Source: a virus (lineage: Duplodnaviria > Heunggongvirae > Uroviricota > Caudoviricetes). Taken from it: a stretch of 24,933 nucleotides of DNA. Made by a program: the position numbers. The first letter of the stretch is position 1. Each line of letters begins with the position of its first letter. Below, one piece after another: positions 1-3,000 of the stretch. Location: IMG/VR virus record IMGVR_UViG_2859810971_000004, one strand, 5' to 3'.

Positions 1-3000
1 ATGGCGGGTTATTTGTCCTGGTTATTCCCCCGTTGTAAAATCTCTCCTAAACTTAACGGTACGGCACCACACTTCGGGGATGAAATGTTCGCGCTGGTAC
101 TTTTTGTTTGCTACCTGGATGGCGGTTGTGAAGATATTGTTGTGGATGTCTACAACACGGAACAGCAGTGTCTTTATTCTATGAGCGATCAACGGATCCG
201 CCATGGCGGTTGTTTTCCGATTGAGGATTTTATAGATGGTTTCTGGCGACCAGCACAGGAGTATGGTGATTTTTAATTATTGCAGTTGCACAAGAGTCAG
301 TTAGCCCCCAAAGACAGCACCGGTATCAATATAATGCAGGTTGCCAATATCCACGCGATGTCGCAACGGTGTATGACCAAACCAGAAATGATCAGCACCT
401 GTAATTCCCTGCCCTTTTGGGCGTTCACCTAATCGTGAGCGGCTCCACAAGACCTGATGCAAATCAACGTCCTTTTGCCATTCATAAACTGAGGTGTACT
501 GGCAATAGCGGACACTACCATTTGTTCTTTTTTTAAGCAGCCATCTGATGATATTTTTCCCTGAAGGCTGCCGGGGAGATATTCCCCAGACGAGAGTGAC
601 GACGCTGACGATTGTAGAAAATCTCAATGTATTCCCGTATTACTGAGATGGCTTCATCCCGGTTATTAAAACGATAGTGGCTCAGGCTCTCATTTTTCAG
701 CGTTCCCCAGAAGCTTTCCATCGGAGCGTTGTCGTAACAGTTACCTTTACGCGACATTGATGTTTTCAGACCAGACTGCTCCTGTATGACCCGGTAATCG
801 TATGCGCAGTACTGTGAACCTCGATCAGAGTGGTGGATTAGCCCGGCAGGTGGGCGCTGGCTCCTGAGCGCCATAAACAGGGCTTTACCTGTCAGCTCTT
901 TTGTCATGCGCTCTCCCATGGCGTAACCGACAATTTCGCACGTATAAACATCTTTGATGCCAGCGAGGTACAACCATCCCTCCTGTGTGGCAACATACGT
1001 CAGGTCCGCCACCCAGACCTGATTTGGTGCTGTAGGAGCGAACGTCTGGTTCAGCAGATTTGGCGCAACTGGCAGATTGTGGTTCGGGTTCGTAGTCGCT
1101 CTGAACTTGCGTTTCTGCTTACAGCGTAGCCTCAGCTCCTTACGAAGACGTGCCAGTCGGTCACGACCAACGATGATGCCATTCTCTGCCAGCTCCGTCT
1201 GGAGCCGCCGGGTTCCATATGTTTCGCGAGTGCGGATATGTGCCACCTTAATCTCCAGTTTTAGCCGCTCATCACTTTGTTTTCTGTCTGAGGGTTCATG
1301 CTGTACCCAGTTGTAATAACCGCTCCTGGATACACCAAATACCTGACACATCGCTTCAATGGGAAATTGTTGTCGCCATTGTTCGATTAACGCGTATTTT
1401 TCAGCGACTCCTGTGCAAAATACGCTGTTGCTTTTTTTAATATATCGCGCTCAAGGCGAGCTTCATTTAACGCCTTACGCAGTTGCAGAATTTCAGATTC
1501 CAGTTCAGCCACCGTGCGGGAACCAGGAGTACCGAGCCCTTTTCTGGCGGCGGTAACCCATTGTCCTAAAGTGCCTTCAGGAAGGGATAATCGGGAAGCG
1601 CCTTCACTGATCGAAAGTTGATTTTCAAGAACCGTTCTGACAGCTTCGGCTTTGAACTCTTTAGAGTAACGTTGGGTTTTTCTGCTCATTATTAGCTCCT
1701 TCTGATGCCATTCTATTTCAGGAAGGAGTGTCCGTTAAACTCAGGCTACCTCAAACATCATCTGGATAATCGGCATGAGCAATAACATGCTTGCCGGTGC
1801 GACTGTGTACTTCAAGAATAAAGGGCAAATGCTGACATTTTTCCAGCGCCGTTTTCGCTTGTTTCTGTTGATTATCTGCCAGCGCAATAAACCAGTCGCC
1901 GCCATTCATCAACCACAAAGACATCTGCTGGAATGCCAGCGCATCCATCGCCATCTGTTCATGATTGCCTCTTACCGCACGAACCCAATGTTGTTCCAGT
2001 AACTGCAGACAACGTAAACTTTGCGGCCCACGATCGATAACGTCTCCCACTGAGATAAGTAAATCTCGCCACGGATCAAAACGACAATGCCATAATTTGC
2101 GGCGCAACTGCTCAAGACAACCGTGTATATCGCCAGAAAGCCAGATATGTCGCCATTGATGACCCGCAATTCTCTGATAAACGGGCGCAGGCTGTTTCAT
2201 CAATATTTTCCTCCCGCGCTAAAGATCACATAATCTTAACAAGAATGTTAAAAAACGCTGGACTCAGACAGTAGAGTGTGTGTTATGGTTGACTATAAAG
2301 TCAGCGAAGGAAATGCTTCTGGCTTTTAACAGATAAAAAGAGACCGAACATGATTCCTGTTTTCGTCAACAAACAATAAAACCCTTTAAAATTAATGCGT
2401 TGAATAAATTTACGTTCATCTTTTAATCCCTGACACGTACCATTGCATATTAATACATTCAACCAGTTACCATTTTTTTCGAGTTTTTTAGAGAAATTTT
2501 CGGGAATATTTCAGGTCAATCCATGCAGACGCAAGCAATTCCTGTATTGAATAATTCCGTAGCAATTATGTAAAATCATCTCCGGCTGATTTTCATTCAA
2601 ACTCGCGCTATCGAACATCCATCAGCCAGCCGTGGCACGTTCTTGCATACGACGTGCTACGGTTTCCTTTACGATTTGGGGTTGCGACTTTACCTCTATT
2701 GATAATGCATTCCGGCAGAACGTTCAAATATGAAGTACGATGTTTAACTAACCGAAAAACAAGAACAATACGGTGCAAGCACGCTATTCACAGTTAACTG
2801 AAACAGTATCGTTTTTTTACAGCCAATTTTGTTTGTCCTTTTATAATAAAAAAGTGCTGAAGTTCATTTCATGGAATGAACTTCATAAAAACTCCTACTT
2901 ATTTCTTTTAACAAAGCCATTTGTCCATCGGCTTTAACTGAATGTCCATCATGTTACCGATAAATAATAACTTTTCATTGTCCCAAAATTCTTTTTATAA

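Follow-up and report, generated by a model that had tools for sequence, protein, structure and literature searches.

Introduction

Several phages and related elements use the 3' end of a tRNA or tmRNA gene as their integration site, among them P4 at leuX, P22 at thrW, Sf6 at argW and CP4-57 at ssrA. The attP of such elements copies the 3' end of the RNA gene, so that the integrase-proximal junction regains the complete gene and the other one keeps a short duplicate of the 3' end as a scar. In Salmonella, the last 23 bp of the small RNA gene ryeB (sdsR) have been reported as the attachment site of phage PhiW104 and as an insertion hot spot, with lysogeny altering the 5' part of ryeA (Balbontin, 2008, J Bacteriol 190:4075, as cited in PMC7380047 and PMC3333887). 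According to PMC7380047, integrase-mediated site-specific recombination at this core has been published for PhiW104 of Salmonella. The sdsR gene always lies downstream of yebY, with a variable neighbour on its 3' side, and in Shigella flexneri full-length SdsR has been detected by Northern blot, along with an SraC (RyeA) that is about 35 nt longer than in Escherichia coli (PMC3333887).

Here, we analysed a stretch of DNA of 24,933 nt from the IMG/VR virus record IMGVR_UViG_2859810971_000004 (in the following, the window), in which an sdsR-like sequence lies upstream of pphA. A preliminary description had read it as the place where an ipaH cassette replaced or truncated the sRNA locus. Its observation is confirmed by our analysis, and its interpretation is partly supported. 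The junction is an ordinary phage integration at a known hot spot and not a destroyed sRNA gene; judging from the sequence comparisons presented below, window 2335-2360 is very probably a hybrid attachment site (B-O-P'), left at the integrase-distal end of a decayed prophage that had integrated in the 3' end of sdsR/ryeA. We found no paper describing this junction in Shigella.

Results

On the plus strand, window 2335-2360 reads AAAAAGAGACCGAACATGATTCCTGT, the reverse complement of which is the 3' end of SdsR (...ACAGGAAUCAUGUUCGGUCUCUUUUU), including the U-tract. In direct alignments with sdsR of E. coli K-12 (reference L001 3105-3208, minus strand), the final 26 nt of the gene are identical to the minus strand of this interval at 25 positions and the final 31 nt, ungapped, at 29, whereas the other 73 nt show chance-level identity only, their counterpart in the window being unrelated phage-arm sequence. 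This agrees with the preliminary description, according to which about 30 terminal nucleotides resemble SdsR and the body of the sRNA does not. The match begins 135 bp upstream of the K-12-type pphA start codon (ATG, window 2200), in agreement with the 130-160 bp given in the preliminary description, and is in the syntenic position. In a four-way alignment, no mismatch to K-12 occurs between 2150 and the core, and a C to T change at 2351 is the sole difference within the core. Similarity to K-12 is lost after 2360 (alignment) or 2365 (BLAST), well short of position 2440. A chance resemblance between an AT-rich intergenic hairpin and the SdsR terminator would sit well with the lack of a significant covariance-model match, yet its probability is close to nil in view of the near-identity, the syntenic place and the continuity with a mismatch-free K-12 flank; the 26-mer occurs once in the whole window and in none of 100 shuffles. 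The alignment and the shuffle test refute this explanation.

The covariance models named in the preliminary description did not call the element. SdsR_RyeB (Rfam RF00111; gathering score 38 bits over an RNA of about 100 nt) gave no match in 2100-3050 at E <= 10, nor any in the window as a whole, and SraC_RyeA (RF00101) reached 23.1 bits (E = 0.077), below its gathering score of 37, with good alignment over the first approximately 35 model positions only. As covariance models are blind to a fragment of 26 nt, direct alignment was used instead. The minus-strand hairpin reported about 130-160 bp upstream of pphA is as imperfect as described. It folds with a minimum free energy of -3.6 kcal/mol (z = +1.28), a stability equalled or exceeded by 181 of 200 shuffled sequences; the K-12 sdsR terminator, for comparison, reaches -15.8 kcal/mol (z = -3.3). 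A terminator scan called no terminator-like site at the scar. We thus rejected a working terminator at this place, the remnant hairpin being neither called by the scan nor more stable than shuffled sequence. The scar, where only the last 26-31 nt align, lacks the sRNA body with its seed region and internal stem-loops as well as the sigma-S promoter that precedes it. Genuine sdsR lies directly downstream of yebY (PMC3333887); the fragment is located on the pphA side, and yebY is absent from the window. Having neither promoter nor sRNA body nor stable hairpin, the 26-nt tail is a scar rather than a gene.

The core is followed by the P' arm of a phage attP (2361 to approximately 2664), which is AT-rich (GC 0.32-0.33) and is shared with pinE prophages up to 2671 and with phage PP818812, that is, with prophages devoid of ipaH and with the attP of a free phage. 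It begins with TTTCGTC, which partly resembles the bases that come next in sdsR; repeats at 2478-2514 resemble the arm-type sites of integrases, and a conserved phage hairpin is located at its inner end (2628-2664), where it corresponds to inverted repeat I1 of the free-phage attP and appears in the structure line of the CssrB alignment. In PP818812, attP lies between int and the tail-fibre genes in the order int, core, P' arm, and this region (L006 1208-1531) is 84.9% identical to window 2334-2657. PP818812 is the only free-phage record with this attP; it is labelled as an Actinobacillus phage, a host label that looks wrong. Foreign DNA does meet the core genome at this point, but the adjoining DNA is the P' arm and not the cassette, which starts only at about 2658-2690 and is kept from any contact with the core genome by the approximately 300 bp of P' arm (2361 to about 2664) in between.

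The att core is also present in the attP of PP818812 and at the integrase-side junctions of two relatives, namely EIEC VL40 and an E. coli (IGC) harbouring a sister phage that carries pinE. The four att sites fit together, with B-O-B' in K-12, P-O-P' in PP818812, B-O-P' in the window and P-O-B' at the integrase side of IGC and EIEC VL40. The pphA-side junction is shared by EIEC VL40 at 99.6% identity over a query of 1.25 kb. In both relatives, a prophage of about 40 kb extends from pphA to yebY, a second direct copy of the core is present at its far end, and the P-O-B' junction there holds full sdsR and ryeA, flanked by yebY and int. These sdsR copies (L004 and L005) score 116.4 and 118.1 bits against the threshold of 38, RyeA scores about 179 bits, and the sdsR terminator at this junction is stable. 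The integrase has the Pfam domains Phage_integrase, Phage_int_M and lambda Arm-DNA-binding, those of a tyrosine recombinase with arm binding, and arm-type-like repeats occur in both the P and the P' arms. From this set of junctions, we infer that the locus arose by integration. At core positions 6 and 15, the copy on the pphA side carries the bacterial bases, the integrase-side copy of VL40 those of the phage. A crossover to the right of these two positions would give such a split, and base differences between the junction copies suggest that it took place within ACGATTCCTGT (window 2350-2360).

Among the complete E. coli genomes with a match (5425), the match to a junction query stops in most at query position 76, which equals window 2365. 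In 228 E. coli genomes it runs on through the phage arm, and the junction is carried by approximately 4% of complete E. coli genomes. The core plus P' was found in 48 IMG/VR contigs, with ipaH3 in 7 and a pinE homologue in 17 of them.

The notion that most of sdsR was deleted or replaced when the ipaH cassette inserted, so that a dead, truncated sRNA is left in an organism that has lost SdsR, draws on the presence of only the last approximately 30 nt of the gene at this position, on the lack of any SdsR match in the 24.9-kb window, and on one IMG/VR contig (L022) in which sdsR is truly truncated by a deletion fused to ipaH3. We consider it very improbable for the window, where the break coincides exactly with a phage att core, a second copy of which occupies the far prophage end in relatives with complete sdsR, where generic phage arm rather than ipaH cassette adjoins this core, and where the full-length SdsR expressed in S. 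flexneri (PMC3333887) also speaks for an intact gene. The cassette did not replace or truncate the sRNA locus: the 26-nt core is the duplicated crossover sequence, and the complete gene is found at the other prophage end in the relatives. As the integrase-side junction of the present genome lies outside the window, an intact sdsR elsewhere in this strain was not seen, and we infer it from these relatives; the integration model as a whole rests on them for this genome, because the window is without a second att site, int and sdsR. It could also be that sdsR was later lost in this genome.

The gene that is truly cut at the junction is ryeA (sraC), not sdsR. Its orphaned 5' end occupies 2297-2360 on the plus strand and comprises the K-12 transcription start (L001 3067, corresponding to window 2297) and the first 64 of 272 nt, and the promoter upstream of it shows no mismatch to K-12. 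We weighed whether the scar region is functional. Transcription from the ryeA promoter could give a chimera of RyeA' and phage arm, still able to pair in trans with the 3' end of SdsR or else extending into ipaH3; alternatively, the hairpin could stop minus-strand transcripts before pphA. Promoter and start site are free of mismatches, transcription of ryeA is sigma-70-dependent (PMC6610125), ipaH3 is located on the same strand, and no terminator-like site is predicted on the plus strand between 2297 and the ipaH3 start. The remnant hairpin, however, has the stability of shuffled sequence, and ipaH genes of this class possess an MxiE-dependent promoter of their own; insulating pphA would moreover be purposeless, as the gene is already broken by IS600 here. 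A function of the scar thus seems unlikely.

On the integrase side of the source genome, the P-O-B' core and P arm would be expected to read AAAAA(G/A)AGACCGAATACGATTCCTGT, preceded by ...TTGATTT(C/T)AAAT(G/A)CAATT. A simple promoter scan of the integrase-side P arm found nothing. Manual reading points to a candidate promoter, TTGTTA-18-TATAAC, the -10 element of which lies approximately 39 bp further from the core than that of K-12 ryeA. We posit that a promoter in phage-arm DNA may account for the longer, differently expressed SraC/RyeA published for Shigella.

The ipaH3/Hc gene (2942-4657, plus strand) encodes a T3SS effector E3 ubiquitin ligase of 571 aa and was identified as an open reading frame and by a RefSeq IpaH3/Hc entry in a 99.4%-identical EIEC region. 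The gene is accessory cargo (a moron), flanked by the P' arm on one side and by a tail-fibre assembly/DUF4376 gene of the prophage (4836-5399, minus strand) on the other. The latter was recognized as an open reading frame and from the annotation of VL40, is 77.6% identical to gp70 of PP818812, and is shortened by the next IS600 (5406-6670). In place of the cassette (about 2658-4882), PP818812 has 58 bp. The ipaH3 promoter region contains the MxiE box GTATCGTTTTTTTACAG (2806-2822, plus strand), an exact match to the consensus GTATCGTTTTTTTANAG (PMC9769918) at 120 nt upstream of the ipaH3 start, which predicts MxiE dependence; matches with up to 2 mismatches occurred in 2 of 100 shuffles. The terminator scan further revealed an 11-bp hairpin in the ipaH3 leader (2858-2885) that is terminator-like if the minus strand is read. 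A divergent neighbour of the ipaH promoter is a CssrB-family sRNA sequence (2631-2813, minus strand; Rfam RF02799, model 1-180, 145.7 bits, E = 8.6e-31, gathering score 76 bits). A Northern blot at the SF2021/SF2022 locus of S. flexneri 301 defined this family (PMC3071730). In comparison with the original locus (Rfam RF02799; Peng et al., 2011, PMC3071730), the match is full-length and likewise directly precedes an ipaH gene in divergent orientation. Unlike the original, the copy in the window is a paralogous sequence at another ipaH locus, and its 3' stem-loop is the conserved phage-arm hairpin. The length of 571 aa is that of IpaH class #2, or ipaH1383 (PMC9046306). A class #2 protein of this size (ipaH1383/ipaHc), a conserved upstream region with an MxiE box, and prophage genes, IS elements and pseudogenes around the gene are shared with the chromosomal ipaH islands of Shigella, prophage remnants with MxiE-regulated ipaH genes (PMC9046306, PMC3299695). 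In this respect the locus shows nothing unusual; new here are the att site of the carrier phage and the position of the cassette relative to the arm.

The window bears the marks of extensive decay. The pphA gene (L001 2314-2970 in K-12) is divided by an IS600 (489-1753, minus strand) with open reading frames of 100 and 272 aa, which is annotated as IS600 in record match H6. The 3' fragment of the gene is found at 277-489 (minus strand; window 1-489 is 98.6% identical to L001 2038-2526) and the 5' part at 1753-2200 (minus strand; start codon at 2200 by K-12 annotation; window 1753-2365 is 99.3% identical to L001 2523-3135). Self-BLAST showed five IS600 copies of about 1265 bp each that are 99.4-99.8% identical. 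The last one (23397-24660, minus strand) forms the joint between the prophage remnant and the 5' part of ycjN (24661-24933, minus strand; 99.6% identical to E. coli ycjN), a core gene from a distant chromosomal region. Because this IS600 rearrangement joins the prophage remnant to ycjN, the far prophage end has been removed, and the window is left without the integrase-side att site and sdsR. No integrase remnant was found in the window by tblastn, and no second copy of the att core. A scan of genome contigs returned one S. flexneri locus of 8 kb with the pphA-side junction only.

Discussion

Our comparison suggests the following course of events. A temperate phage with a contractile tail, whose early region is lambdoid and whose tyrosine integrase is of the lambda type, and the attP of which copies the last approximately 26 nt of sdsR, would have recombined with the chromosomal sdsR end, resulting in a duplicated core. 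At the integrase-proximal end, sdsR would be rebuilt beside yebY with the terminator half supplied by the phage, while at the pphA end the original 26-nt tail alone would stay, fused to the P' arm. Together with its MxiE box and the CssrB sequence, ipaH3/Hc is cargo placed just inside the P' arm, where sister phages have the pinE invertase. Integration would also have split ryeA, leaving its sigma-70 promoter and first 64 nt beside pphA, and would have cut pphA off from the sdsR promoter that normally drives it. Insertions of IS600, IS1, IS2 and IS66-family elements, the loss of int and the IS600-mediated joint to ycjN have later fossilised the site in this genome.

Such an integration resembles those at tRNA and tmRNA genes in that the 3' end of an RNA gene is part of attP and a scar is found at the distal junction. 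It differs from them in its target, a regulatory sRNA with an overlapping antisense partner, which is why SdsR is preserved and RyeA is split. The closest counterpart is the PhiW104/ryeB hot spot of Salmonella enterica, as far as it is portrayed in the papers that cite the original report (PMC7380047, PMC3333887): the target is the last approximately 23-26 bp of ryeB/sdsR, internal to ryeA, sdsR stays intact while the 5' part of ryeA and its promoter are swapped for phage DNA, and the ryeB/sdsR 3' end is used repeatedly by phages and phage remnants. Unlike in the PhiW104/Salmonella system, the hosts here are Shigella, EIEC and E. coli, and the phage family carries ipaH3/Hc or pinE as cargo by the arm. 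In contrast to an active lysogen, the window holds the integrase-distal scar of a decayed and rearranged prophage.

A more far-reaching consequence can be imagined, one that the sequence makes conceivable and that we hold to be improbable. A chimeric RyeA'-phage RNA from the ryeA promoter, approximately 645 nt upstream of ipaH3, might provide ipaH3 with a basal input independent of MxiE and the T3SS, run antisense through CssrB, or titrate the SdsR 3' end in trans, and pphA might in parallel lose its coupling to the sdsR promoter, which depends on sigma-S, in the approximately 4% of complete E. coli genomes with the junction.

The current understanding of phage integration and of SdsR is unchanged by these findings. 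For annotation, the 26-nt scar should not be named sdsR, and in these genomes the gene should be sought beside yebY. The integration reading explains the "half sRNA" beside pphA in Shigella and EIEC without gene loss, and it identifies the attachment site and the carrier-phage family of ipaH3/Hc, a family that elsewhere has the pinE invertase at the same cargo position.

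The sdsR remnant upstream of pphA

The left end of the window is E. coli core genome, in which yebW (1-276) is followed by a minus-strand pphA whose 3' part (277-489) and 5' part (1753-2200) are split by an IS600 (489-1753). The K-12 coordinates flanking this IS600 overlap by 3-4 bp, resembling a target duplication. The region under study (2204-2941) extends from the pphA start to an ipaH gene at 2942-4657 and contains the integrase-distal scar of site-specific integration at a documented sRNA attachment site.

Positions 2335-2360 read AAAAAGAGACCGAACATGATTCCTGT on the plus strand and ...ACAGGAAUCAUGUUCGGUCUCUUUUU on the minus strand. 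K-12 sdsR is annotated on the minus strand at 3105-3208 of the K-12 pphA/sdsR/ryeA region (L001), and its 3' end aligns to window position 2335. Its final 26 nt are identical at 25 of 26 positions and its final 31 nt at 29 of 31, ungapped, while direct alignment of the other 73 nt to K-12 gives a chance-level match only. The 26-mer is present once in the window and in 0 of 100 shuffles. The preliminary description, which recognized an SdsR-like minus-strand tail upstream of pphA with an imperfect hairpin and similarity confined to about the last 30 nt, was accurate in these respects. The hairpin is degenerate (-3.6 kcal/mol, z = +1.28; 181 of 200 shuffles fold equally well or better) compared with the K-12 sdsR terminator (-15.8 kcal/mol), and the terminator scan made no call at it. 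Of the covariance models, the Rfam SdsR model has no match at E <= 10 and the RyeA model scores 23.1 bits, below its gathering score of 37. A C to T change at 2351 is common to two further IMG/VR contigs with a 99.8%-identical IpaH3 protein (tblastn) and is thus a lineage marker rather than a private change.

The K-12 flank is mismatch-free from 2150 to the core, and similarity is lost after 2360 (alignment) or 2365 (BLAST). With a junction-spanning query, the match ends at precisely that base in most of the 5425 matching complete E. coli genomes. The proposed junction with the core genome therefore stands, but it is a phage arm and not the ipaH cassette itself that meets the core genome there.

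Anatomy of the attachment site

Positions 2361 to about 2670 are not ipaH-specific: many ipaH-free E. coli genomes have the same stretch, followed there by a pinE invertase gene and, behind it, a complete prophage that includes baseplate, sheath and terminase genes. At least 80% of the arm is present in 217 of 5426 genomes, and the E. coli junction-query search found the same junction in 228 genomes. The free phage PP818812 carries the stretch at 84.9% identity, the match starting at the sdsR-like core, between its integrase and tail-fibre genes, which is the attP position. The attB of K-12 (B-O-B', bacterial arms around the core O) consists of CAGAT, AAAAAGAGACCGAACACGATTCCTGT and ATTCGGTCCAGGG, and the phage attP (P-O-P') of CAATT, AAAAAAAGACCGAATACGATTCCTGT and TTTCGTCAACAAAC. 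In the window, the core is flanked by the K-12 arm on its left and the phage arm on its right, which is the B-O-P' arrangement.

The complementary P-O-B' junction is present in two genomes, EIEC VL40, which shares the ipaH3 junction of the window (99.6% identity across a 1.25-kb query), and E. coli IGC_RcoliRes_1.1, which carries the pinE sister phage. Their prophages place about 37-42 kb between pphA and yebY, and the far end is ordered yebY, sdsR/ryeA, core, phage left arm, int and xis. There sdsR is complete (SdsR model, 116.4 and 118.1 bits; RyeA model, about 179 bits) with a stable terminator called by the terminator scan. The suggestion that the cassette replaced or truncated the sRNA locus is not supported. 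The phage integrase belongs to the lambda-type tyrosine recombinases and has an arm-binding domain, and similar repeats, TTCGAGT...AAATTTCGGG, are found in the P and P' arms (P' copy at 2478-2514). Core positions 6 and 15 are polymorphic, the pphA-side copy of VL40 being bacterial-type and the integrase-side copy phage-type; this pattern would put the crossover inside ACGATTCCTGT (window 2350-2360).

The phage-supplied sdsR 3' end forms a perfect stem, GUAUUCGGUC (22748-22786 of the IGC_RcoliRes_1.1 locus L005; 9998-10036 of the VL40 locus L004), and in VL40 its U7 tract is uninterrupted. The K-12 counterpart, GUGUUCGGUC (L001 3105-3140), contains one G-U pair. On this basis, sdsR termination ahead of the convergent int gene may be tighter in lysogens.

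PP818812.1, the sole free-phage record with the whole core and P' arm, is labelled as coming from Actinobacillus pleuropneumoniae. The host label looks doubtful: an E. coli prophage encodes an Int 98% identical to the one in this record, and the attP fits the enterobacterial sdsR. The P arm of this phage (1125-1135 and 1147-1173 of its attP region, L006) holds a second, degenerate core copy, AAAAAAGACCGGAATACAGAAATTCG, 85 bp off the real core; a P-arm repeat recurs in the P' arm and may represent arm-type sites of the integrase. Six IMG/VR contigs (L010, L023, L044, L027, L031 and L042) contain the core and the start of P', but their left flanks do not resemble the pphA side of E. coli; different host species, or phages with different P arms, may be using the sdsR core there.

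The ipaH3 cassette

The 571-aa ipaH product (2942-4657) is annotated by RefSeq as ipaH3 or "IpaH3/Hc" in a 99.4%-identical EIEC stretch, and by length and MxiE box it belongs to class #2 (ipaH1383/ipaHc) under the scheme of PMC9046306. Two stretches, window 2334-2657 and 4883-5376, run collinear with the free phage (1208-1531 and 1590-2083 of L006, respectively), so that about 2.2 kb (approximately 2658-4882) stands in for 58 bp of phage. Homology to the pinE phage stops at 2671 (BLAST) or about 2689 (MAFFT), within the pinE 3' end. The cassette therefore joins phage DNA directly past a conserved hairpin (2628-2664), not the core genome. Among 48 IMG/VR contigs with core and P' arm, ipaH3 is present in 7 and a pinE homologue in 17, making ipaH3 one among several alternative cargos here.

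The cassette brought an exact MxiE box (2806-2822). With it came a full-length match to the Shigella sRNA family CssrB (RF02799; 2631-2813, minus strand, 145.7 bits), which has the conserved P'-arm hairpin as its 3' stem-loop and overlaps the MxiE box with its 5' end. CssrB was first detected by Northern blot beside another ipaH gene, SF2021/SF2022 (PMC3071730); the window sequence is a paralogue of that verified copy. In S. flexneri SFBU1023 (CP182556.1; L007 5932-6700), a 769-bp IS1 lies in the P' arm between att core and ipaH3, at a site corresponding to window ~2456-2467, where the window has no such IS1.

Decay of the prophage

The prophage in the window is a wreck. It carries five IS600 copies (489-1753, 5406-6670, 9085-10348, 13833-15095 and 23397-24660; 99.3-99.8% mutually identical), one IS1, an IS2 and an IS2 fragment, and an IS66-family element, and its early-region fragments are scrambled. 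Neither an integrase (tblastn) nor a second core copy was found in the window. The final IS600 directly abuts the 5' part of ycjN (to 24933), a core gene of a distant region, so an IS600-mediated chromosomal rearrangement took the integrase side away from the remnant. The window itself is without sdsR; from the relatives and a Shigella Northern blot we infer that its strain has an intact copy.

The phage isrK and C4 antisense RNA module is present in two inverted copies (11704-11892, plus; 15189-15390, minus), one including the c4-a1b1 target, which indicate that the immunity/antirepressor region was duplicated or rearranged. A sok antitoxin RNA (Rfam 'sok antitoxin (CssrC)', 118 bits; 18335-18509, minus) marks a hok/sok module of the remnant.

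Contig L022 (IMGVR_UViG_2690316286_000019; 1-2373) is arranged as yebY, sdsR 5' part, mid-ipaH3, P' arm, core, P arm and int, with a 10-nt microhomology, CATTTCCCTG, at the sdsR-ipaH3 fusion point. The internal attP-like junction (P' arm, core and P arm) is what a deletion in a tandem double lysogen would leave, or else the contig is chimeric through assembly. In this genome sdsR is genuinely deprived of its terminator.

Consequences for ryeA, sdsR and pphA

The K-12 ryeA start (L001 3067) corresponds to window 2297, and its upstream sequence is mismatch-free relative to K-12; what survives here of ryeA is thus its sigma-70 promoter and the first 64 nt of the RNA. This 5' end now points into the phage arm, toward ipaH3, and the terminator scan predicted no terminator-like site on the plus strand before ipaH3. 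A chimeric ryeA-phage-arm RNA might conceivably be formed.

On the integrase side, the P arm offers a candidate promoter, TTGTTA-18-TATAAC, identified by manual reading, whose -10 exceeds that of K-12 ryeA in distance from the core by about 39 bp; a strict promoter scan of that junction did not call it. S. flexneri makes full-length SdsR, and its SraC/RyeA exceeds the E. coli RNA by about 35 nt because the -10 box is placed about 35 bp further upstream (PMC3333887). We attribute this length to the integrase-side ryeA promoter region being phage P-arm DNA. As summarized in PMC7380047, Balbontin et al. (2008) described phage PhiW104 as integrating within the final 23 bp of ryeB, internal to ryeA, its lysogeny altering the ryeA 5' portion, with ryeA expression down and ryeB up. 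Most pphA transcription in K-12 starts at the sdsR promoter and reads through the sdsR terminator (PMC6610125). The prophage parts pphA from sdsR, and in the window pphA is additionally broken by IS600.

The sdsR gene is invariably found downstream of yebY, its 3' neighbour varies, and the locus is a repeated recipient of foreign DNA and still a phage attachment site (PMC3333887). What is new is the combination of host and phage at this attachment site. The scar is unsurprising in itself and useful for annotation and for tracing the arrival of ipaH3.
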